Shown piece after piece: positions 5,435 to 51,584 of a stretch of 64,000 nt of DNA (positions within the stretch are counted from its first letter, which is position 1; each line of letters starts with the position of its first letter). Position numbers and translations under genes: made by a program. The notes beneath the pieces were generated by a model. The model saw only the letters and a program-made list of their open reading frames with translations, was not told the origin of the DNA and searched no databases. The stretch is from Candidatus Enterousia sp. (GTDB lineage Bacteria; Pseudomonadota; Alphaproteobacteria; Rs-D84): the NCBI GenBank assembly GCA_045539815.1, contig JAZQGC010000010.1, positions 27,583 to 91,582 on the forward strand. The letters run 5' to 3'.

Positions 5435-5803
5435 ATGGCAAGAGTAAAACGCGGAACAACCGTTAAACAAAAACATAACAAGATTTTGGCGCGCGCCAAA
5501 GGTTATTTGGGCCGTCATCACTCAACATATCGCGCAGCACGTGAAAAAACAGAAAAAGCAGGACAGTACGCATATCGCGACAGACGCGTTAAAAAACGTG
5601 AATTTCGTTCATTGTGGATTGTTCGTATCAATGCTGCTGTACGCGCAAATGGTATGACATACAGCCAATTCATGAATGGTTTAAAGAAAGCAGGCGTTGC
5701 ACTGGACCGCAAGGTTCTGGCCGAAATGGCATATGCAGGCGATGCAAATTTTGCCACATTGGTTGAAACAGCAAAACGATTTATTTCTGCCGAAGCTAAA
5801 TAA
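5435..5803 (+). CDS. rplT: 50S ribosomal protein L20
   Basis: [18 protein letters not shown]...[22 protein letters not shown] is the typical L20 sequence. Confidence 0.95.
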
Positions 5804-5837
5804 TACCTTGTCGGCAGGTATATGTTTTGTAATAATG

Positions 5838-5870
5838 AAAGCCGACAATTGACGGCTTTTGTTCTTTTAA
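5838..5870 (+). terminator. intrinsic terminator / attenuator hairpin between rplT and pheS
   Basis: AAAGCCG-ACAATTGA-CGGCTTT followed by TTGTTCTTTT. Its 5' arm (GCCGACAA, 5841-5848) is also perfectly complementary to TTGTCGGC at 5808-5815. Confidence 0.55.
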
Positions 5871-5891
5871 GTTATATGTAAGGTAAAAGTT

Positions 5892-6839
5892 ATGCAAGAA
5901 AAAATAAAAAATATAAATACACTGGAAGAATTGCAGGTCTTGTACACCGCAACATTTGGAAAAAATGGCACAATGACCGCGCGTTTAAAAGAAATGAAAA
6001 ATCTGGATAATGATGCGCGTGCAGCATTAAATCTGGAAAATCAAACATTGCGTGAATTGTTTAAAATGCGTCAGACAGAAATTGAAAACGCGGTATTGAT
6101 GGCTGGATTACAGAAACAAAAATTGGATGTATCGTTAAATCCAATGCCTGAAAATCGTGGTACATTACATCCATTGACACAAAGTTTATCTGAAATTGCA
6201 GCAATTCTGGAATCGTTTGGTTACAAAATGTACACCGGTCCAGAAATCGAAGATGATTGGCATAACTTTACCGCATTGAATACACCGATGCATCATCCGG
6301 CCCGTGACATGCAAGACAGTTTCTTCTTGGAAAACGGCAATGTTTTGCGTACCCAAACATCTGCGATTCAAATTCGTGCGATGGAACGTGATGGTGTTCC
6401 GATTAAAATGTTTGGTGTTGGATCTACTTATCGCAAAGAAATGGATGCAACACACAGTCCTATGTTTGGTCAAATCGAAGGTTTATATGTTGATAAAAAT
6501 GTTACTATGTCCGATTTATTGGCAGATGTTCGTGCATTTTTATCAAAATTCTTTGGCATTGAAAACATAGAATTGCGTATTCGTCCATCTTATTTCCCAT
6601 TTACAGACCCCAGCATTGAAATTGATATGAAGTGGAAAAATGATAAATGGTTGGAATTGATGGGTGCGGGTATGGTTCATCCAAATGTATTGCGTAATTG
6701 CGGTATAAATCCTGATGAATACCAAGGTTTTGCATTTGGCTTTGGTTGGGACAGATTGGCAATGTTAAAGTATGGATTGAACGATATTCGCCAGTTCTAT
6801 GATAATGATGTTCGTTGGTTACGCAGCGCAGGATTTTAA
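5892..6839 (+). CDS. pheS: phenylalanine--tRNA ligase alpha subunit
   Basis: 315 aa with class II aaRS core motifs (HPARDMQDSFF, RTQTSAIQIR, GAGMVHPNVL...GFAFGFGWDRLAM). Followed by pheT. Confidence 0.95.
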   Translation: MQEKIKNINTLEELQVLYTATFGKNGTMTARLKEMKNLDNDARAALNLENQTLRELFKMRQTEIENAVLMAGLQKQKLDVSLNPMPENRGTLHPLTQSLSEIAAILESFGYKMYTGPEIEDDWHNFTALNTPMHHPARDMQDSFFLENGNVLRTQTSAIQIRAMERDGVPIKMFGVGSTYRKEMDATHSPMFGQIEGLYVDKNVTMSDLLADVRAFLSKFFGIENIELRIRPSYFPFTDPSIEIDMKWKNDKWLELMGAGMVHPNVLRNCGINPDEYQGFAFGFGWDRLAMLKYGLNDIRQFYDNDVRWLRSAGF

Positions 6840-6854
6840 TACGGGGGTACAGTT

Positions 6855-9158
6855 ATGAAATGGACACTTGATTGGTTACAAGAATATTTAAAAACAGATG
6901 CGTCTGCACAGGATATATCTGACACATTAACGCGTATCGGATTGGAAATCGAAGATATGCAGTCTCCGATATCGCCGATTGCTGCAAAAATCGTTGAATG
7001 TCGGGCGCATGAAAACAGCGACCATTTACATGTTTTACAGGTTGACGATGGGGCTTCGACCCTGCGTCAGATTGTCTGTGGCGCACCAAATGTACGCGTG
7101 GGCCTGGTATCTGCGCTGGCGACGCCTGGGTGTGTAATTGGTGGACATGAAATTCAGTCTGGTAAATTGCGTGGCGTTTTATCAGATGGTATGATGTGTT
7201 CTGGCAAAGAACTGGGTATAAACGATGACCACAGTGGAATTATCGAATTGCCAAGTGATACAGTTGTTGGAACACCCGTACTTGAAACAAAAACAGTGTT
7301 TGACGCGGGTATTACCCCAAACAGACCAGACTATTTGTCTGTACGCGGTATTGCGCGTGATTTGTCTGCGGCGGGTATTGGCGAATATATTGCACCAAAC
7401 GACACACCGTTCAACAGTGTTTCTGGAAATCGTCAGGTTATATTAAAAACAGATAAATGCCGTGCATATAAATTCATTGAAATACATGACATTACCGTTA
7501 ACCCCAGTGATAAAAAAATTGCATCAAGACTTGCTGCGATTGGTATAAATCCGAAAAATGCGCCGGTTGATGCAACAAACTATATCTGTTATGACATGGC
7601 GCAGCCAATGCATTGTTTTGACGCAGACGAAATCAATGGTGATATTACCGTGCGTCAGGCACAGAACGGTGAAAAATTTACAGACTTGTTCGGCAACGAA
7701 CACGAATTGTTGGATACAGATGTTGTTATTGCAGACGCGTCCGGTATTTTGGCACTGGCGGGTGTAATCGGTGGCGCGCGCGGTTCAACAACAGAAAATA
7801 CAAAAAACATAATATTGGAATCTGCGTACTTTGATGCGGTATCTGTTCGTAAATCTGCGAAAAGATTGGGTATATCAACAGACGCATCTTATCGGTATGA
7901 ACGCGGTATTGATCCAACAATAACGGGTGTGGCGGCACAGTATGCGGCTGATATTATTATGTCTGCATGTGGTGGTAATATTGTTTGTGCGGTTGCGGCG
8001 GGTTCAGACACACCAACAAATATTGCAATAGAATATACACCTGATTATTTTGTAAAGAAAACAGGCGTTGAAATGTCTTGTGATACCCAGCGTGATATAT
8101 TGATTAAGTTGGGATATGTTGTTGATGACTCATCAGAAACATGGATTGTAACACCACCTTCTTTGCGTGTGGATGTTTCTATCCCAGAAACGATTGTGGC
8201 GGATTTATTGCGTATACATGGTTATGATAAAATTGCAACTGCCAAGAATCATACATATGGCGAAGTATCAGGTCATGATATGTTTGAAACAAATATCAAA
8301 ACATTACTGGCGTCACGCGGATTAAACGAATGTCGTTCGTTTGGTTTTGGAAACAGTCAAATTGAAAAGATATTGTCTGACAGGCCAATAATACCGGTTT
8401 CAAATCCGATTACCGCAGACTATGACACAATGCGAAATAGTTTGTTGTTTGGTTTATTGTATGCGGTTACGAATAATGAAAAGCGCGGTTACCCAGATTT
8501 AAATTTATTTGAACTAGGTACAGTGTTTGATGGTGATATGCCATGTCAGCAACATACACAAATCGCGATTGTTCGCACGGGCAGCAATTCACCAAAACAT
8601 TGGACCGGCCGCAGTCGTGATGTTGATATATATGATATCAAGGCTGATTTAATCGCATTAATGCAGGGGCAACGATTCACTGTTTCAACGGAAAATGCAC
8701 CATTATGGGCACATCCTTACAGATATGGCGCATTGTACCAAGGTAAAAAGAAAATCGCAGAATTTGGTGAATTACATCCATCTGTTGCCAAGAAGTTGCG
8801 TATAAAAACAAATGTTGTTATCGCAATTGTCGAAGATATTCAAAATCTGCCTGCAAAACGCGGTGGAAAATCGCCTGTGTTATCAGAATTTCAACCAATA
8901 ACACGTGATTTTGCGTTTATTGTTGATGTTGATACACCATCAGAAAAATTAACATCTGTCGCACAAAGCGCAGACAGTCGTATAACAAATGTAATTGTTT
9001 TTGATTCATTTGATATGAACGATGGCAAAAAGTCTATTGCGTTTACAATAACGATTCAACCAACAGACAACATGTCAGATTCAGATTTACAACAAATCCA
9101 ATCTGTGGTAATTGCGTCTGTTGAAAAGAAATGTAATGCAACGATTCGCGATAAATAA
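6855..9158 (+). CDS. pheT: phenylalanine--tRNA ligase beta subunit
   Basis: 767 aa with an N-terminal tRNA-binding (Trbp111/EMAP-like) domain (HLHVLQVDDG...IVCGAPNVRVG), B3/4, B5 and a C-terminal FDX-ACB-like end. Confidence 0.95.
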   Translation: MKWTLDWLQEYLKTDASAQDISDTLTRIGLEIEDMQSPISPIAAKIVECRAHENSDHLHVLQVDDGASTLRQIVCGAPNVRVGLVSALATPGCVIGGHEIQSGKLRGVLSDGMMCSGKELGINDDHSGIIELPSDTVVGTPVLETKTVFDAGITPNRPDYLSVRGIARDLSAAGIGEYIAPNDTPFNSVSGNRQVILKTDKCRAYKFIEIHDITVNPSDKKIASRLAAIGINPKNAPVDATNYICYDMAQPMHCFDADEINGDITVRQAQNGEKFTDLFGNEHELLDTDVVIADASGILALAGVIGGARGSTTENTKNIILESAYFDAVSVRKSAKRLGISTDASYRYERGIDPTITGVAAQYAADIIMSACGGNIVCAVAAGSDTPTNIAIEYTPDYFVKKTGVEMSCDTQRDILIKLGYVVDDSSETWIVTPPSLRVDVSIPETIVADLLRIHGYDKIATAKNHTYGEVSGHDMFETNIKTLLASRGLNECRSFGFGNSQIEKILSDRPIIPVSNPITADYDTMRNSLLFGLLYAVTNNEKRGYPDLNLFELGTVFDGDMPCQQHTQIAIVRTGSNSPKHWTGRSRDVDIYDIKADLIALMQGQRFTVSTENAPLWAHPYRYGALYQGKKKIAEFGELHPSVAKKLRIKTNVVIAIVEDIQNLPAKRGGKSPVLSEFQPITRDFAFIVDVDTPSEKLTSVAQSADSRITNVIVFDSFDMNDGKKSIAFTITIQPTDNMSDSDLQQIQSVVIASVEKKCNATIRDK

Positions 9159-18419: not shown

Positions 18420-18707
18420 TTACATTTGATAAGATGCTTCACGTACTTTTTGTATCAGTCGCAACGCGTCATTTATTTTTTTTGTTGTCAGTTCAATATT
18501 TAATACGGGTTTTTTGCGTTTATAATGATATCTTGCGTTTGAAAAGATATGCGTGATACCGTGAACGACTGTACAGCGTTTTGGATTTTTGCAATTCTTT
18601 TTACAGTTTGCGCATAATATAACAGTGCTAAGAACCGTTTCTGGATTTTTTTTATTCAGTTCGTATGTTCCAACGACACGAATCATCCGCATTGAATTAT
18701 TCATCAT
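18420..18707 (-). CDS. hypothetical basic protein (95 aa) with a CxxCxxxCxxxxxC cluster
   Basis: ATGA overlap with the metG stop and 5 nt upstream of queH. Contains CANCKKNCKNPKRC. No family recognised. Confidence 0.35.
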   Translation of the reverse strand: MMNNSMRMIRVVGTYELNKKNPETVLSTVILCANCKKNCKNPKRCTVVHGITHIFSNARYHYKRKKPVLNIELTTKKINDALRLIQKVREASYQM

Positions 18708-20692
18708 TTGTATTCATCCCCAATGTTATAAGATGCGTCCAGTTCAATAATTTGTGTGTCATCGTCATTTACGCCGATTTCTGCGCCGCTGCACATCATG
18801 CCGAACGATTCGATACCTGCAACAGTGCGCTGGGCCAATGGTTTTTTTACACCTGGTAATTTTGCACCAACTGGCGCCAAAACCCCACGCAAACCCACGC
18901 GTACATTTGGCGCGCCACATACGATTTGAACATTTTCATCGCCGCCCGTGTTCACAGACAGAATATGCAAATTATCGCGTTCTGGGTGATTTTTTACATC
19001 AACAATTTCTGCGACGGTCAGTTTTGGTGAATTATCGACTTGTTTTGGTGTGTACTTTTCGGTCAGTTCTGCAATCTTGGCATCATCGATACGATTGAAC
19101 AAGTTTTCCGGCACGATAAATTCATCGCCATCATTAATACGATGTTCGTATGATTTTGGCCAAGACAAATCATGTGCGTTTACAAAAACATTTTGCATTT
19201 TTTCTGCGGCACTTGGGATTATTGGCGCAGACACGCGTGCAAACAAATCAATCATTTGCATACATTCATTTAATACAGCCCCTGCCCCTGCTATATCGCC
19301 ATTTTTAATCATTGCCCATGGTTCCATTTTGGTCATATATTCATTTGCAATTGCGTATAAACCGCGCAGTGCCGCGATTGATTTACGGAATTCACATGCT
19401 TCCAATGCAGATGTTAATTCAGATATTTTTTCATTGATTTGTGATTCCAGTTCTGGATTTTTTTCACCAGCGTTTGGAACGTTATTACCAAAATTTTTCT
19501 GTGTTAATTTGCAAACGCGTGATACGAAATTTCCAAGCATTCCGTTCAGGTCTTTGTTAACAATATCTGCGAAACGTGCAACTGTAAAATCTGTATCATC
19601 TGTTTCTGGTGCGCTTGCCATCAGTGCATAACGCCAGCAATCCGCGGGTGCATCATTGATTGCCTCGTTCAAGAATATTCCGTTACCTGTTGATTTTGAA
19701 ATCTTGGCACCATTAAAATTCAAGAAATTAAATCCCTTTAATATATCAACTGTTTTCCAGTTATCGTTCATCGCCAATTCTTGGGCGGGGAAAAATATAG
19801 AATGGAACGATACATTATCTTTGGCCATAAATTGGGCATATTTTACATCGTCACCACCATGCCACCAATCGGCCCAGTTTTCATTTGCCGCCTGAGATAT
19901 TGAAACATATCCCCATGGCGCATCGAACCAAACATAGAATACTTTGTTTTCATAACCTGGTTTATTAACAGGAATCCCCCATTTTAAATCGCGTGTGATT
20001 GGGCTGTCGTGCAAACCTTCTTCCAGCCATTTATTTGCGATTGCCAATGCGGTTTTTGACCATCCGACGCGTGAATCAATCCATGCGCGTAATTTATCCT
20101 GCATGGCGCTGGTTTTGAAATACAAGTGTTTTGTTTCGCGCATTTCAACAGGCGATGTTGGATCGACTGCACTGTGTGGGTTTATTAATTGTTCTGGTTC
20201 CAGTGTTGCGCCACATTTTCCGCATTCGTTACCATATGCCCCGTCAAAACCGCATTTTGGGCAAGTGCCGATAACATATCGGTCTGCCAGAAACATATTT
20301 TCGTTAATTGAATATGGTTGCATAGATGCTTTTTCAACAATCATATTTTCTTGTTCCAGACGCAAGAATAACGCTTGGATTAAATCCTGGTGTTTTTGTG
20401 TATGTGTACGGCCATATATATCAAATGACAAATTAAAGTCGCGAACAGATTGTTCGTGTGCCTGACGGTATTTATCAACATATTCTTCCACGGGCATATT
20501 TTCTTTTCTGGCACCGACTTCGCTGGTTGTACCGTGTTCATCAGCCCCGCAAACATATAAAACATCACGCCCCATTGCGCGACAAAAGCGCGCATAAACA
20601 TCCGATGGTAACCAGCATCCAACCAAATGTCCAATATGCAAATTGTTGTTAACATACGGTAATGCAGATGTAATTAAATATTTTTTTGCCAT
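18704..20692 (-). CDS. metG: methionine--tRNA ligase with a C-terminal tRNA-binding domain
   Basis: 662 aa with HIGH (NNNLHIGHL), KMSKS (KISKSTG) and a Zn-knuckle (CPKCG...CGKCG). The C-terminal Trbp111-like domain (HILSVNTGG...IVCGAPNVRVG) parallels the pheT N-terminus. Confidence 0.95.
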   Translation of the reverse strand: MAKKYLITSALPYVNNNLHIGHLVGCWLPSDVYARFCRAMGRDVLYVCGADEHGTTSEVGARKENMPVEEYVDKYRQAHEQSVRDFNLSFDIYGRTHTQKHQDLIQALFLRLEQENMIVEKASMQPYSINENMFLADRYVIGTCPKCGFDGAYGNECGKCGATLEPEQLINPHSAVDPTSPVEMRETKHLYFKTSAMQDKLRAWIDSRVGWSKTALAIANKWLEEGLHDSPITRDLKWGIPVNKPGYENKVFYVWFDAPWGYVSISQAANENWADWWHGGDDVKYAQFMAKDNVSFHSIFFPAQELAMNDNWKTVDILKGFNFLNFNGAKISKSTGNGIFLNEAINDAPADCWRYALMASAPETDDTDFTVARFADIVNKDLNGMLGNFVSRVCKLTQKNFGNNVPNAGEKNPELESQINEKISELTSALEACEFRKSIAALRGLYAIANEYMTKMEPWAMIKNGDIAGAGAVLNECMQMIDLFARVSAPIIPSAAEKMQNVFVNAHDLSWPKSYEHRINDGDEFIVPENLFNRIDDAKIAELTEKYTPKQVDNSPKLTVAEIVDVKNHPERDNLHILSVNTGGDENVQIVCGAPNVRVGLRGVLAPVGAKLPGVKKPLAQRTVAGIESFGMMCSGAEIGVNDDDTQIIELDASYNIGDEYK

Positions 20693-20718
20693 TTTTACTG
20701 TGTCCTTTGCCTGTGTTT

Positions 20719-20748
20719 AAAAAAAATAGACGCCAACGGGGGCGTCTA
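20719..20748 (-). terminator. intrinsic terminator inside the metG 5' leader (attenuator)
   Basis: Minus strand TAGACGCC-CCCGTT-GGCGTCTA plus T8, 26 nt upstream of the metG ATG. Confidence 0.7.
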
Positions 20749-20774
20749 CCGATTCCCGTTGATTATTTCTATGA

Positions 20775-20798
20775 TTAAATTTGCATTCGTATCATCAT
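20775..20798 (-). CDS. putative Met-rich leader peptide MMIRMQI
   Basis: ATG ATG ATA CGA ATG CAA ATT TAA. Too short for the ORF track. A TAAAAT -10-like hexamer (20809-20804) lies 5 nt upstream. Confidence 0.4.
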   Translation of the reverse strand: MMIRMQI

Positions 20799-20807
20799 AA
20801 TTAATTT

Positions 20808-20845
20808 TATCCTGTGTTTTTATTTATGGTGGGTGGTATTGGACT
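20808..20845 (-). repeat. direct repeat copy A: duplicate of the tRNA-Val 3' end (19 nt) plus 16 nt of downstream flank
   Basis: tatcctgtgtttttat-tta-tggtgggtggtattggact versus 20955-20991 tatcctgtgtttttat-tg-tggtgggtggtattggact. Confidence 0.9.
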
Positions 20846-20954
20846 GGTCTTGCGACCGCACAGGCGCAAATCGGCGGTGCCGACCGCGATACCCCCGTAT
20901 CGCTTTTGCTGGTTGTCGAACCAACACTGTTGGTTCTTCGTCCAATAAAAACGA
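20846..20954 (-). other. 109-nt GC-rich, hairpin-rich insert between the tRNA-Val 3'-end repeats (function unknown)
   Basis: Minus strand contains GAACCAAC-AGT-GTTGGTTC, GCGATAC-GGGG-GTATCGC, TCGGC-ACC-GCCGA and GGTC-GCAA-GACC. It is much more GC-rich than its surroundings. Confidence 0.4.
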
Positions 20955-20991
20955 TATCCTGTGTTTTTATTGTGGTGGGTGGTATTGGACT
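20955..20991 (-). repeat. direct repeat copy B (overlaps the genuine tRNA-Val 3' end)
   Basis: See copy A. Confidence 0.9.
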
Positions 20992-21049
20992 CGAACCAAC
21001 GACCTTTACGATGTCAACGTAACGCTCTAACCAACTGAGCTAACCACCC
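20973..21049 (-). tRNA. tRNA-Val (anticodon GAC), CCA encoded
   Basis: Reverse complement is GGGTGGTTAGCTCAGTTGGTTAGAGCGTTACGTTGACATCGTAAAGGTCGTTGGTTCGAGTCCAATACCACCCACCA. It folds as a cloverleaf with anticodon loop TTGACAT. Confidence 0.9.
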
Positions 21050-21062
21050 ATAAAGCCAAATG

Positions 21063-21090
21063 ATTATAACAAAGAAAAATCTAAATGCAA
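21063..21090 (-). promoter_or_regulatory. strong sigma70-type promoter for tRNA-Val
   Basis: TTGCAT (21090-21085), 16 nt, TATAAT (21068-21063). The tRNA 5' end lies 13 nt downstream. Confidence 0.6.
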
Positions 21091-21127
21091 ATAATAAATA
21101 TGTTCGCGCGTTATTTAGATTTATTTG

Positions 21128-21559
21128 TTATTTTACTTTTTTTATTTGTTCATATATGTTTGCATATTTATCAGGAAACAAAGTTTGCCCAAATGTCTCG
21201 GACATAAAACTGTTACAGCATTTTCCATTTTGCATATTTCTTAAACACGTTTGAAAGCATTGGTCTGGGGTCATATTTGTTGTTTGTCTTTTTGTGTTAT
21301 TACAGTGCATGCACTTTGGTTTATCGATATACACATCCATTATGCTTTGATATGTTTTGTCGTGTTTTGATACTTGGTATACGGTATTGATTACAACATC
21401 GATTTTATCGCCATAGCATATGTTGTTTGTTGGTGTGATTTGCCCGATTTTTTCTAATAATTCATGTGCTGCATCTGTTGATATTTCTGGTCCAAACGGT
21501 GTTGCATCAGAATTATATTGGTTGCGCAAAAAAAATATCTGTGACAGTTTTTCAATCAT
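21128..21559 (-). CDS. hypothetical Cys-motif protein, paralog 2 (143 aa)
   Basis: C-terminal half aligns with the neighbouring ORF through the motif DQC-x3-C-x6-G(K/R)C-x9/10-(I/F)G-x2-LFP-x-(K/M)Y. Confidence 0.5.
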   Translation of the reverse strand: MIEKLSQIFFLRNQYNSDATPFGPEISTDAAHELLEKIGQITPTNNICYGDKIDVVINTVYQVSKHDKTYQSIMDVYIDKPKCMHCNNTKRQTTNMTPDQCFQTCLRNMQNGKCCNSFMSETFGQTLFPDKYANIYEQIKKVK

Positions 21560-41989: not shown

Positions 41990-43288
41990 ATGAATCGGTT
42001 AAAAAAATTTTGGATTGTATTTTTGTCTTTTTTGCCGTGTGCATCTGGCGCGGCGGTGCCTTTTTTGGTTGCCGGTGTTGCGGGTGTTGGTGTAATTGCC
42101 GGTTTTTCAATATATCGTTCTTCTGTTCCGGTCAACATGGCGGACGCGTATAAGTTTTTTTCCAGTTGTTGGTCGTGTCAGATGTTTTCTGATATTATGG
42201 CGACAATGTCTGGCCTGTTGCCCCGCGTTTACAGTGCGTTGGGACATACAATTGTCCCGTTTGCAATAATGTTAACTGCCGTATGGTTTGCGTGGACATT
42301 ATTAAGCAGTTTTATGAATTCTTCGATTGAAAAACCATGGAGTATATCTGAAAAGTTTGGTGTTCATGTATTAAAGTTGGGGTTTATATGCGCATTATTG
42401 GTTGCGCCATTGCCCAGGATTTTAACAGATGTTGCCATTGAGCCGATATTTAATATTGGTTTGTCTTTGAATCGTATGGCGGTTCATGATGATGGTTTTG
42501 ATGCGTGTGTTGTTGCGACCGCGTTGGCGGACCCTGTATCGGTTGATACGCGTGCCGCAGAATCTGGCGCGTATTCACCCAAATTGCGCCATAATCTGAC
42601 ATGTGAATTGGCGGGTGTGCATCAGCTGACAGGTATGGGGATGACTGTTGGGTGGACAATGATAAATATGTCATTTGACGCTGATTACATGCACAAAATT
42701 ATGTGGGATATTCCAATATTTCCAAATGTTCCGATGTTTTTTGTCGGTGCATTGGTTTTGATATTATTTTTTATGGCATTGATACCTGTCCCATTATATT
42801 TCTTAGAGGTATTTATAAAATTATCAATGGATTTAATAATGTTGCCATTGATGTTGTTGGGCTGGTTATTTTCTGGTTGGAAAATTTCATTGGCTGGTGC
42901 GGGCAAAACGATTCGTCAGATAATAGACGATGTTGTGTCTGCGTCGCTTGGGATTGCGATGACTGGTATTTTTGTATCTTTTGCGATAATGTTTTTAAAT
43001 GCTGTGTTTGGTGATTGGGCGGGGTCCAGTACACTGGTTGCGGCGTTAAGTTCTGGCGAATCGCAAGGCGCCAAGATATTAATGGATGCATTAATGTTAC
43101 GAAATGATAATTTGATAACAATTATCATGATGGGTATATTTATTGCGATGTTTATGACATCGATACCTGCGCTGGTAAAGTCTTTATTCAGCGTTCAGAT
43201 TTCCACAGATTTTTATAACAAGGTTGAAAGCAACCTTAAAATCATTACTGAAAATGCCAAAAAATGGTACGAATCGTTAAAAAAATAA
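41990..43288 (+). CDS. VirB6/TrbL-like type IV secretion membrane protein, divergent fifth paralog (432 aa)
   Basis: MNRLKKFW... signal peptide, CWSCQMFSDI motif, polytopic, IMLPLMLLGWLFSGWK, Lys-rich tail. Confidence 0.5.
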   Translation: MNRLKKFWIVFLSFLPCASGAAVPFLVAGVAGVGVIAGFSIYRSSVPVNMADAYKFFSSCWSCQMFSDIMATMSGLLPRVYSALGHTIVPFAIMLTAVWFAWTLLSSFMNSSIEKPWSISEKFGVHVLKLGFICALLVAPLPRILTDVAIEPIFNIGLSLNRMAVHDDGFDACVVATALADPVSVDTRAAESGAYSPKLRHNLTCELAGVHQLTGMGMTVGWTMINMSFDADYMHKIMWDIPIFPNVPMFFVGALVLILFFMALIPVPLYFLEVFIKLSMDLIMLPLMLLGWLFSGWKISLAGAGKTIRQIIDDVVSASLGIAMTGIFVSFAIMFLNAVFGDWAGSSTLVAALSSGESQGAKILMDALMLRNDNLITIIMMGIFIAMFMTSIPALVKSLFSVQISTDFYNKVESNLKIITENAKKWYESLKK

Positions 43289-49315: not shown

Positions 49316-49342
49316 AAAATCCCGCGTTTTGCGGGTTTTTTT
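49314..49342. terminator. bidirectional intrinsic terminator (rpsO / virD4 convergent)
   Basis: A-tract, then CCCGC-GTTTT-GCGGG, then T7. Confidence 0.7.
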
Positions 49343-51584
49343 ATTGTGTAATTTCGCGTACCTTTTTTGTTTTCGCGTCATATATGCGTGGTTGTCCTTC
49401 GTAATGCAACGCATGATGATGTTTTGGTATCATATATTCTGGAATTGGCGATGCGCGTTCCATTTTGACCTTGTCGTTGAGTGCGATTTGTATTTTATTT
49501 TTGCGCAAGAAGTGCCATTCACCATCGGCCTCAATCGGTCTGTTATAGTATCCCTGGTACAGCACGATTTGTCGTGCATCTGGCAGTGTCATTAAATCCA
49601 TTGGTGAAAACAAGTCTTCTTCTTTGTCGACTTCGATTTCTTTGCCGTCTGGTCCTTTTTCCTTCTTTTTTGTTTTTTTCTTGCCAATCATGCGTGTGAA
49701 TTTTTCAGCAGTTGCCGGGTCATTAACACGCAATATAATCTTGGCGGCAGTATTTGCGATAATTGTTTCTGCGGCCTTGTCGCCGTATTTATCCTGAATC
49801 TGACTGATGTCCTGCCCGACAATCAGATACGATACCTTTTGTCCGCGTCCAACTGCGGGGCCTTGAACGATGGCTTCCAGTTTGTTCATAGTTGGCATTT
49901 CGTCCAATACGAACAACGCAGGATATGGTCCCAACTTTTTTCCATGATTTGTTTTTTCTGGTGGATTCGCAATCAAGAAATTAGACAACAGTTCAATGAA
50001 CATACTGGTGATTGGTTTAAATGCCGGCGCATCGGCAACATTCATTGACAGATATATTGTAATCGGTTTGATTTTTCCATCTGTTGGGTCGACCATACCG
50101 CGCATATCGCTGAAATGGATGTCAGAATGTCGCGTATGTTTGTTTACTGCGGGGTGTCTGAAAATGTTTAATCCTGCGTTCATGGTTGACATAATAGAAC
50201 CGCGTTCCTTGTCCGGCGTGTTTGCCAGGTTGATAAATGCAGAAATAGCATCATCGTTATAGGAATATAATCTGGCTTCGTTAACAGCGGCGTTCAAGAA
50301 ATCTTTCATTGGGTCGGCCATCATAACCATTTGGTCGCCTTGTTTTTTTCTTTCTTCCAGGTCGTTTGCGACCTTTAATTGACCTTCTACGTACCATGCC
50401 AAGAACATTGGGATTGATGCCTCGGCCCCGTGCCACTCTGCGGGCAGTCCACCCCATGTACCGACATGGACATAATTATCCAGTGTCAGTTCGCCGCGTT
50501 GTAATGCCGCCATTGCAGCGTATGCGTTCGGGTCTGATGACATTGTCATATAGTAATCCATCAACACGACGGCGTCCTGTTCGTCAAATGTGCCGTTTTG
50601 CAGTCGGTTATAGAAATAGTCGTTCGCCTTGGCGCGTTCGACCTTGGAAATTATAAAGTTTATATATCCTGTTAATGCTGCGCGCGCCGTATTTGACCAG
50701 TGTGGGTCTTTGGCGTTTTCTTCAATAATAGTATTCACGATAACTTGAATATATGTACTGCGTTCTTCGATTGTTGTCGGCATGTTTTCCGGGGACAGCG
50801 GATTCCACGCAGGATAATATATTCCGTTTTCTGGTTCGTCTGGTGCTGCCCAGTTTAATATAAATACTGGTCCAACCGTTGCGCGATATCCAGATGTATC
50901 GCGGTCCAGTTCTGGTTTAGGGTCGTTTATAATCATTGAAACATTATCGCACCCCAAGATTGTCGGTATAACGACACCTTGTGTTTTACCGGTACCAGCG
51001 GGCGCCAATAACAACGCAGACAGGCATGTATCCATTTTTAATGGTTTGCCTTTGAAATACCCCAATACCATCATAAATCCGCCAAACAGCCCTTCGTTAT
51101 TCTTGTGGTCTGATTTCATTTTTTTGATATCGTTGGCATTTGCCTTGCGCGAAGATTTTTCGTCAAATTTATCTTTTGAGTGCGGATTGATTTCATCTGT
51201 CATTGTTGCATCGGCCAAGAAGTAGTACGCAATAACCGGTAACAGTGGTGTTATGCATGCAATGTCTGGTCGTAATATACAGCGTATAAGCCAATCTGGA
51301 ATTTGCGCCAACACAGACATCCCAAGTGTGTTAATTGCCTGGTGAAAATATATCCATATCCAATGCTTGGTTGCGGGTGACCAACCGTAACGCCATATTT
51401 GTTCAATTGGAAACGCGCACGCGACCAACAATGCGGCAATCAGCCATACAATTATTGTCCATCGTATGGACCAAAATTCGCGTGCCAGTGGTGTTTTTTC
51501 GTGTTCTTTATAGGCCTCGGACCGGAAAATACTGATTCCTTTGCCTTTGCCCGACATTGATAAAAAGTTGAATTTAGCTGCCAT
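49341..51584 (-). CDS. virD4: type IV secretion coupling protein VirD4/TraG family
   Basis: 747 aa with N-terminal TMs, Walker A LLLAPAGTGKTQGVVIPT, Walker B-like LFVLDEMPTMNKLE, and a TraG/VirD4-type all-alpha insert. Confidence 0.85.
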   Translation of the reverse strand: MAAKFNFLSMSGKGKGISIFRSEAYKEHEKTPLAREFWSIRWTIIVWLIAALLVACAFPIEQIWRYGWSPATKHWIWIYFHQAINTLGMSVLAQIPDWLIRCILRPDIACITPLLPVIAYYFLADATMTDEINPHSKDKFDEKSSRKANANDIKKMKSDHKNNEGLFGGFMMVLGYFKGKPLKMDTCLSALLLAPAGTGKTQGVVIPTILGCDNVSMIINDPKPELDRDTSGYRATVGPVFILNWAAPDEPENGIYYPAWNPLSPENMPTTIEERSTYIQVIVNTIIEENAKDPHWSNTARAALTGYINFIISKVERAKANDYFYNRLQNGTFDEQDAVVLMDYYMTMSSDPNAYAAMAALQRGELTLDNYVHVGTWGGLPAEWHGAEASIPMFLAWYVEGQLKVANDLEERKKQGDQMVMMADPMKDFLNAAVNEARLYSYNDDAISAFINLANTPDKERGSIMSTMNAGLNIFRHPAVNKHTRHSDIHFSDMRGMVDPTDGKIKPITIYLSMNVADAPAFKPITSMFIELLSNFLIANPPEKTNHGKKLGPYPALFVLDEMPTMNKLEAIVQGPAVGRGQKVSYLIVGQDISQIQDKYGDKAAETIIANTAAKIILRVNDPATAEKFTRMIGKKKTKKKEKGPDGKEIEVDKEEDLFSPMDLMTLPDARQIVLYQGYYNRPIEADGEWHFLRKNKIQIALNDKVKMERASPIPEYMIPKHHHALHYEGQPRIYDAKTKKVREITQ

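Follow-up and report, generated by a model that had tools for sequence, protein, structure and literature searches.

Organization of the region upstream of metG

The DNA analysed here (the window) is a stretch of 64,000 nucleotides (nt) from contig JAZQGC010000010.1 of a Candidatus Enterousia sp., and the element under study is the leader of metG, the gene for methionine--tRNA ligase (MetRS; 662 amino acids (aa), positions 18704..20692, minus strand; NCBIfam NF001100, E = 9e-169). A preliminary description had recognized in this leader a Met-rich mini open reading frame (mini-ORF), an intrinsic terminator and a competing antiterminator helix, and had read them as a cognate-codon attenuator. 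The leader and the elements preceding it are read on the minus strand, downstream distances being given in that sense, and a re-reading of that strand found the coordinates of all the sequence features of the leader to be correct.

The transcript that enters the leader in this genome comes probably from the promoter of the tRNA-Val gene, a sigma-70 type site (TTTGCA-17-TATAAT, 21063..21091) with 10 of 12 matches and a TG extension; the promoter scan that identified it found no further promoter-like site between it and metG. It is followed by tRNA-Val(GAC) (20973..21049), which in most relatives lies directly upstream of the leader and is here parted from it by a structured, GC-rich insertion of 143 nt (20830..20972), a separation seen in this species only. 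A Shine-Dalgarno-like AGGA (20810..20813) lies 11 nt ahead of the first ATG of the mini-ORF. The hexamer TAAAAT (20809-20804), 5 nt upstream of the mini-ORF, had been regarded as a -10 element, a proposal that did not hold up: it is not called as part of a promoter, has no -35 partner and is not conserved, and relatives carry a Shine-Dalgarno-like AGGA in its place.

The mini-ORF itself (ATG ATG ATA CGA ATG CAA ATT TAA, encoding MMIRMQI; 20775..20798) contains the family-invariant CGA-ATG (20789-20784), after which come two free codons and the stop codon (20777-20775). An A/U-rich spacer of 13 nt (20762..20774) leads to the 5' strand of the alternative (antiterminator) helix, (U)CAACGGG (20755..20762; CAACGGG itself, 20761-20755), whose 3' strand is CCCGUUG(G) (20733..20740; CCCGTTG, 20740-20734). 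CCCGTTG is the exact complement of CAACGGG and is made up of the loop of the terminator plus the first G of its 3' arm. The terminator, (GG)TAGACGCC-CCCGTT-GGCGTCTA(TT) plus T8 (20719..20750; T8, 20726-20719), has the loop CCCGUU and a stem, TAGACGCC/GGCGTCTA, of 8 pairs that grows to 10 if G.U pairs are counted. The remaining 26 nt of the 5' untranslated region (UTR) of metG (20693..20718) include its own Shine-Dalgarno-like AGGA (20706-20703). Considering this leader alone, a perfect 7-nt complement to the hairpin was found by chance in 0.3-0.7% of shuffled sequences.

Conservation and family anatomy of the leader

A MetRS protein scan taking one genome per species rendered 78 loci for comparison. 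About 57 of them belong to the Candidatus Enterousia clade of gut Alphaproteobacteria (MetRS identity 64-100%), including a strain 98% identical to the window (L048), and the more distant ones (47-49% identity) served as outgroup. The module was found directly upstream of metG in 42 of the ca. 57 Enterousia-clade loci, so that the mini-ORF and the complementarity, whose presence in relatives had been proposed as a check, are indeed conserved. In all, 55 distinct sequence versions of the module were distinguished, every one of them just ahead of metG. Metagenome matches, obtained with an exact-pattern scan of 241 million contigs, were located immediately upstream of an ORF with a MetRS-like start in 26 of 26 cases. 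A covariance model built from the 42 aligned leaders detected a single copy in the window and no other there or in ca. 360 kilobases of related loci, and when it was used to look for more distant versions in motif-less relatives and in the outgroup none was found. Placed on the MetRS tree, the module is spread over the whole Enterousia clade, deepest branch included, but missing from the outgroup. Judged from its sequence conservation, the metG leader is a real control element, specific for metG, and chance is excluded as an explanation for it. The module sits in the 3' trailer of tRNA-Val in most genomes, whereas in at least five clades it lies behind a dedicated promoter, with no tRNA.

The family core is ATG-CGA-ATG-YAN-NNN-stop, a five-codon ORF that starts with one or two ATG codons and ends with TAA in 54 versions and with TGA in one. 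The spacer that follows is A/U-rich and free in sequence, its length being 13-17 nt (14.8 +/- 1.1 nt). Then come the 5' strand of the alternative helix, YRRCGGG (mostly CAACGGG; otherwise TAACGGG, TGACGGG or CAGCGGG), a linker of 12-21 nt that takes in the 5' arm of the terminator, and the 3' strand CCCGTTG, invariant in every copy, an invariance to be read bearing in mind that the search patterns themselves demanded CCCGTTG. The 3' arm, the T-run and 16-29 nt up to the metG ATG complete the arrangement. The 26-nt distance to the start codon, shared in the window with the ileS leader and previously highlighted for that reason, is a coincidence in view of this range. The sequence between the conserved blocks (25-30 nt) is unconstrained.

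The ORF encodes M(M)(I)RM[Q/Y/H]x, of which only Met-Arg-Met is fixed. The content of three Met codons out of seven that had first drawn attention to the mini-ORF is therefore peculiar to this species, to which the inserted ATA is also confined; what stands is a translated ORF containing a cognate Met codon, with the core M-R-M-x-x. Codons 4 and 5 drift next to an invariant AUG at codon 3, a single sensing codon being far fewer than classical leaders have, and CGA is invariant although rare (42 of 619 Arg codons).

Signs that the mini-ORF is translated

Translation of the mini-ORF is well supported by several features of its sequence. The start codon is ATG in 59 of 59 contexts. Among the 48 contexts lacking a close -10 box, with the module either behind tRNA-Val or preceded by a long 5' UTR, ca. 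37 bear an AGGA, GGGA or GAGG motif 3-15 nt (mostly 9-11 nt) before the ATG, a spacing that matches that of metG itself; the same Shine-Dalgarno test was positive for 10% of random ATGs of the window and for 55% of 31 long ORFs. The other 11 contexts, belonging to at least five clades, have no Shine-Dalgarno motif and present instead a perfect TATAAT exactly 6-7 nt before the ATG, the bases in between being unrelated from context to context. This implies that in these contexts the A of the AUG would be the first transcribed base and the mini-ORF leaderless.

The reading frame also appears to be maintained. The distance from CGA-ATG to the stop codon is always 6 nt, so that both the length of the ORF and the position of its stop are fixed. 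Codon 4 is TAY in 16 of 16 cases when its first base is T, and CAR in 33 of 39 when it is C (Fisher p = 2.5e-9, not corrected for phylogeny; the pattern spans at least six clades), which is evidently a pattern of in-frame stop avoidance. An extra in-frame ATG has been gained just upstream in at least five lineages, and in the window a third ATG copy has decayed to ATA with the frame kept. The ORF is also intact in the window while a small 5' hairpin overlapping it is broken. Since codons 4 and 5 vary at all positions, the peptide itself would not be the product under selection; a drifting peptide sequence is typical of leader peptides. The sequence MRMxx resembles the E. coli 23S "E-peptide" MRMLT, a resemblance that we take to be a coincidence. 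A second ORF, following the GGGA of segment 2, was considered and rejected, its frame not being conserved because the C-run varies between 4 and 8.

Elsewhere in the window, a 432-aa ORF at 41990 (plus strand) lacks a Shine-Dalgarno motif and carries TATACT 7 nt ahead of its start codon, an ATG. As a candidate leaderless mRNA it would fit the occurrence of leaderless starts in this lineage.

Alternative RNA structures of the leader

The terminator is the minimum-free-energy (MFE) fold of the isolated leader, and five pairs of its stem show compensatory double changes across relatives (5' arms GACGCC, GATGCC, GACACC, GACGTC and GGGCGCC, each with a matching 3' arm). The competing helix that had been proposed was borne out as well: (U)CAACGGG:CCCGUUG(G), of 8-9 base pairs (bp) counting the flanking G.U and C-G, is kept in 55 of 55 versions. 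The only substitutions in it, C to U and A to G, are compatible with wobble pairing, and in the TGACGGG clade both of its strands are one base longer. The evidence for this helix is thus one of conserved complementarity, as seen in the alignment, and not of covariation. It takes up the loop of the terminator together with the top one to three pairs of the stem, and the two structures would therefore compete. In the nascent RNA, considered up to CCCGUUG, the alternative helix is the MFE structure in 50 of the 55 versions, with ca. -10 kcal/mol, the leader as a whole reaching ca. -17 kcal/mol. In nascent RNA, CAACGGG is just as accessible as in shuffled controls (mean z = +0.1), and in the window it is 95% unpaired. 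The only other structure indicated by RNAalifold is a marginal 3-bp hairpin over codons 1-4, UGC-GAAU-GYA (ca. -1.7 kcal/mol), which is the one broken in the window.

Additional pairings and known RNA families were considered and rejected. For a putative anti-antiterminator, in which the ORF or the spacer would pair with CAACGGG, only a weak UCUU:GGGA was seen in some sequences, which does not exist in the window, and the overall accessibility was as in shuffles. Inspection revealed no complementarity of the invariant AUGCGAAUG to the terminator arms, the U-tract or the ribosome-binding site of metG, and pairing with the arms is also at odds with their covariation next to an invariant ORF. For CAACGGG, a pairing to the T arm of the upstream tRNA-Val is not compatible with the clades, at least five, in which the module occurs without a tRNA, and an operator at which MetRS would recognize a mimic of the tRNA-Met anticodon arm found no correspondence in a conserved CAU in any loop. 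Rfam, applied to the whole window with gathering thresholds and to 20600-21250 with E <= 10, rendered only the two tRNAs plus noise. The element does not match the T-box (RF00230) at either threshold, is only ca. 80 nt long, and its antiterminator has neither a bulge nor a conserved UGGN. For riboswitches related to S-adenosylmethionine (SAM) or Met (SAM-II, SAM-V, SAM-SAH and others) Rfam was likewise negative at E <= 10, and the stretches between the conserved blocks are unconstrained. No other known leader family was matched in Rfam.

Leaders of other synthetase genes in the window

Upstream of the ileS gene (13082-10059, minus strand) there are a promoter and a leader (13190-13109, minus strand), in which an ORF of 10 codons (MKTQTIIIIK followed by a stop) that includes a row of four Ile codons precedes alternative helices and a terminator. 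The arrangement MK-x3-IIIIK-stop is kept in the four relatives in which the region was compared (L008, L014, L081 and L091), in one of which (L091) the leader lies directly after tRNA-Thr and has no promoter of its own. Between the stop codon and the antiterminator strand there are 8-10 nt, and additional competing pairings can be formed. On the strength of these features the ileS leader is a conserved, classical Ile attenuator of a synthetase gene, in agreement with the idea of a second synthetase gene in the window with a leader rich in its own amino acid, and it makes a stronger prior for the metG element.

The pheST operon (5892-9158, plus strand), downstream of rplT, represents a different case. 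A terminator, AAAGCCG-ACAATTGA-CGGCTTT (5836-5861, plus strand), is located 30 nt before the ATG of pheS, and in the region 5800-5892 a GTCGGC ca. 8 nt past the rplT stop codon is complementary to GCCGAC in that terminator. No Phe-rich ORF was found upstream of pheST, where an ORF of 19 codons (MFCNNESRQLTAFVLLSYM, followed by a stop) extends across the terminator. The arrangement is possibly that of a translation-coupled attenuator of pheST, though the ORF is not rich in Phe. The proposal of a genome-wide class of such leaders for synthetase genes is thus borne out only in part, by metG and ileS.

A model for the control of metG

The metG leader is probably a ribosome-dependent transcription attenuator of the leader-peptide type, in a minimal two-state form. 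This interpretation is favoured because a cognate-codon ORF, a competing helix and a terminator are joined in one module placed between the promoter and metG. In the mechanism that we propose, the transcript would come here from the tRNA-Val promoter and, in some relatives, from a dedicated promoter starting exactly at the AUG. In the nascent RNA, (U)CAACGGG would find its partner CCCGUUG(G) while the 3' arm of the terminator is still to be transcribed, and RNA polymerase would read into metG. As there is no anti-antiterminator, a ribosome-free leader should adopt the alternative helix and read through, and termination would need a ribosome that has started on the mini-ORF and run to its stop codon. 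When Met-tRNA, both initiator and elongator, is ample, the ribosome would pass the AUG at codon 3 and reach the stop, the terminator would win and metG would be off. When MetRS activity or methionine is short, either initiation would fail or the ribosome would stall with the AUG in its A site, 9 nt further upstream; both events would keep it off the stop codon, allowing the alternative helix to persist and more MetRS to be made. The rare CGA that precedes the sensing AUG probably slows or sensitises the decoding step. CGA is read through inosine:adenosine wobble, which in other systems slows the decoding step that follows.

We infer the direction of regulation and Met-tRNA as the signal, and likewise that a ribosome located 12-16 nt upstream could tip the choice between helix and terminator. 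Candidate links would be a crowding of the ribosome with the hairpin and the polymerase, a helix that frays at its base, or the behaviour of the ribosome after termination. The constrained length of the spacer, together with its free sequence, suggests in any case that the position of the ribosome matters.

Several observations weigh against this interpretation. In every one of the 55 versions the unpaired gap between the stop codon and the first pair of the helix measures 12-16 nt, with 13-14 nt in 41, and established footprint and toeprint data indicate that a ribosome at a stop codon protects ca. 10 nt beyond it. Simple occlusion, in which a ribosome at the stop would cover CAACGGG as was originally proposed, therefore fails, since 2-5 nt stay free, and the trp attenuator tolerates a gap of ca. 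5 nt next to the stalled ribosome. No anti-antiterminator or pause hairpin (1:2) overlapping the ORF was detected by nascent-RNA accessibility or RNAalifold; what remains of the initial cognate-codon reading is thus a conserved, metG-specific module that, having no third structure, is not a classical three-hairpin attenuator of the trp type. Only one internal Met codon is conserved, so that the cognate-codon argument comes down to a single invariant triplet. The alternative helix shows no double compensatory change among the 55 versions, and the invariance of its strands could reflect recognition other than by the partner strand. Conservation extends to single nucleotides, namely the YA that follows the AUG and the last base of CGA, and this would also fit the hairpin UGC-GAAU-GYA and hence a constraint on the RNA. 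Finally, the whole module has been cleanly lost at least nine times, leaving a plain promoter and UTR, and it is therefore dispensable.

A more specific version of the attenuator, which we put forward tentatively and hold rather less probable than not, would be a two-state device gauging charged Met-tRNA through the start of translation and the passage of codon 3 on a five-codon, sometimes leaderless ORF, in which CGA would sensitise a single AUG. With no anti-antiterminator it would read the charging of both initiator and elongator tRNA, unlike all classical leader peptides, and it would form part of a lineage-wide set of controls of synthetase genes (metG, ileS) in uncultured gut Alphaproteobacteria.

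Alternative explanations

It can also be the case, although we consider it unlikely, that a trans-acting factor or a ligand (MetRS, another protein, methionine or SAM) reads the hairpin AUGCGAAUGYA, the CAACGGG/CCCGUUG helix, or both, the ORF being incidental or secondary. Such a factor would account for the nucleotide-level conservation just mentioned, for the hairpin found by RNAalifold, in which a C/U change preserves pairing, and for the invariance of both strands of the alternative helix as opposed to the freely covarying stem of the terminator; it would also provide the control of the helix that the geometry of the ribosome leaves unexplained. On the other hand, that hairpin has just three weak pairs, which are broken in the window, the 25-30 nt between the conserved blocks are free with no evident aptamer fold, and there is neither a CAU anticodon mimic nor an Rfam riboswitch or T-box match at E <= 10. 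An element acting only as RNA would have no need of a conserved stop codon (once replaced by TGA), of stop avoidance or of gains of in-frame ATGs, and neither would it be expected to be preceded, in unrelated contexts, by a Shine-Dalgarno-like motif or by a -10 box at the exact leaderless spacing.

The element could otherwise be a partial terminator or insulator between tRNA-Val and metG, with read-through either constitutive or set by the general translation status. Its location in the tRNA-Val trailer in most genomes fits this idea, as do a locus (L053) in which a plain terminator alone stands between tRNA-Val and metG, other terminators of this genome found ca. 30 nt before the next ATG, such as that of pheS, and the single Met codon; attenuators with an upstream ORF (uORF) that sense general stalling are moreover known, for instance in the leaders of antibiotic-resistance genes. 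However, in the clades with a dedicated promoter and no tRNA the terminator can act on metG alone, and an insulator would explain neither the exclusive link to metG nor the invariant AUG next to drifting codons, the repeated gains of extra in-frame AUGs or the sister case at ileS with its four Ile codons. We judge this explanation to be improbable.

That the terminated RNA of ca. 80 nt acts in trans as a small or dual-function RNA, like rnTrpL/peTrpL of Sinorhizobium, with control of metG as a side effect, is very improbable in spite of its Hfq-type look (an A-rich, ARN-like spacer and a terminator with a U8 tail) and of the alphaproteobacterial precedent for attenuator-derived small RNAs starting at AUG, for every copy of the element lies just ahead of metG and none stands by itself, its peptide is not conserved beyond MRM and no target or seed region was identified, and such a role would be compatible with an attenuator and does not exclude it.

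Insertion next to tRNA-Val and other features of the window

The 143-nt insertion between tRNA-Val and the metG leader (20830-20972, minus strand) carries at its end an 18-nt copy of the 3' end of tRNA-Val, and its predicted folding is strong (MFE -53.5 kcal/mol, z = -4.2). No Rfam family matched it. A fuller copy exists at L001:2207-2333, which begins with the 5' strand of the tRNA-Val acceptor (GGGTGGT), has an acceptor-like stem closing four hairpins, ends in ACCACCCACCA and is provided with its own terminator. Two readings are left for the insertion, a tRNA-like RNA gene hitherto undescribed or what remains of an element integrated into the tRNA. A comparison of the window (20815-20829) with the closely related strain (L048:2868-2882) disclosed a sharp difference confined to the 15 nt that follow the second copy of the tRNA 3' end, where the flank of the second copy in the window has become like that of the first (TAAATAAAAACACAGG vs CTTTTAATTACAGG). 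Such a change points to gene conversion between the two copies of the tRNA 3' end. In a different part of the window, an ORF at 49341-51584 (minus strand) encodes a type IV coupling protein of the VirD4/TraG type, which hints at a conjugative or integrated element in that part of the contig.

Significance and comparison with known systems

The control of metG is poorly understood outside the Firmicutes, in which T-boxes fulfil this role. If the interpretation proposed here is correct, the metG leader would be the smallest natural attenuator of its type, with five codons and one sensing codon, and since methionine is also the initiator amino acid it could represent a coupling of synthetase supply to translation initiation. 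Natural variants are at hand in the form of Shine-Dalgarno-led and leaderless versions, spacers of 13-17 nt and repeated clean losses, and its awkward geometry would make it a good test of the reach of the ribosome over RNA folding. It would also indicate leader-peptide attenuation on synthetase genes in uncultured gut Alphaproteobacteria, helping to annotate thousands of metagenome-assembled genomes.

We found no literature on a metG leader peptide or attenuator. Attenuators upstream of pheST are known, and those of trpS and leuS have been predicted in Streptomyces (PMC1262725). With E. coli pheST (pheM), the metG leader shares a short translated ORF with cognate codons, an intrinsic terminator before a synthetase gene, a competing antiterminator helix and a homeostatic logic. 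Leaders of the pheST type, however, have at least 14 codons, several of them cognate, and a three- or four-segment RNA with a 1:2 anti-antiterminator or pause hairpin, and their stop codon adjoins or lies within the antiterminator strand, whereas the metG leader has five codons with one internal AUG, no 1:2 hairpin and a stop located 12-16 nt before the helix. With trpL, including trpL/rnTrpL of Sinorhizobium meliloti, it has in common the choice between antiterminator and terminator mediated by the ribosome. The S. meliloti trpL attenuator RNA begins at the AUG of the leader ORF (PMC7298713), the same arrangement as in the Enterousia clades, at least five, in which TATAAT lies 6-7 nt before the ATG. 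Unlike the metG leader, trpL has two or three tandem Trp codons and hairpins 1:2, 2:3 and 3:4 and has a biosynthetic operon as its target instead of a synthetase gene; the two leaders are not similar in sequence, and the Rfam Trp_leader family gave no match.

The T-box of metS/metG in Firmicutes provides a similar output, a synthetase induced by uncharged tRNA through a terminator/antiterminator choice, but it reads the uncharged tRNA directly, by means of a long Stem I, a specifier loop and a UGGN bulge and with no ribosome, and these features are not present in the metG leader. The short-uORF attenuators of drug-resistance genes such as vmlR and lmo0919, known from Term-seq, resemble it in having a very short uORF, a switch and stalling as the trigger; they respond to ribosomes stalled by drugs, and their anti-antiterminator overlaps the uORF, whereas the regulated gene, the invariant AUG and the parallel with ileS point in the case of metG to the sensing of tRNA charging. 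The ileS leader described above agrees with it in lineage and layout, with a mini-ORF, which a tRNA gene may precede, alternative helices and a terminator before a synthetase gene, but it is of the classical kind, compared with which the metG element is strongly reduced. Attenuation by leader peptides is thus already known for synthetase genes, and the metG leader departs from the classical design in five ways, namely its five codons, its single sensing codon, its two-state RNA, its distant stop codon and its alternative leaderless forms.

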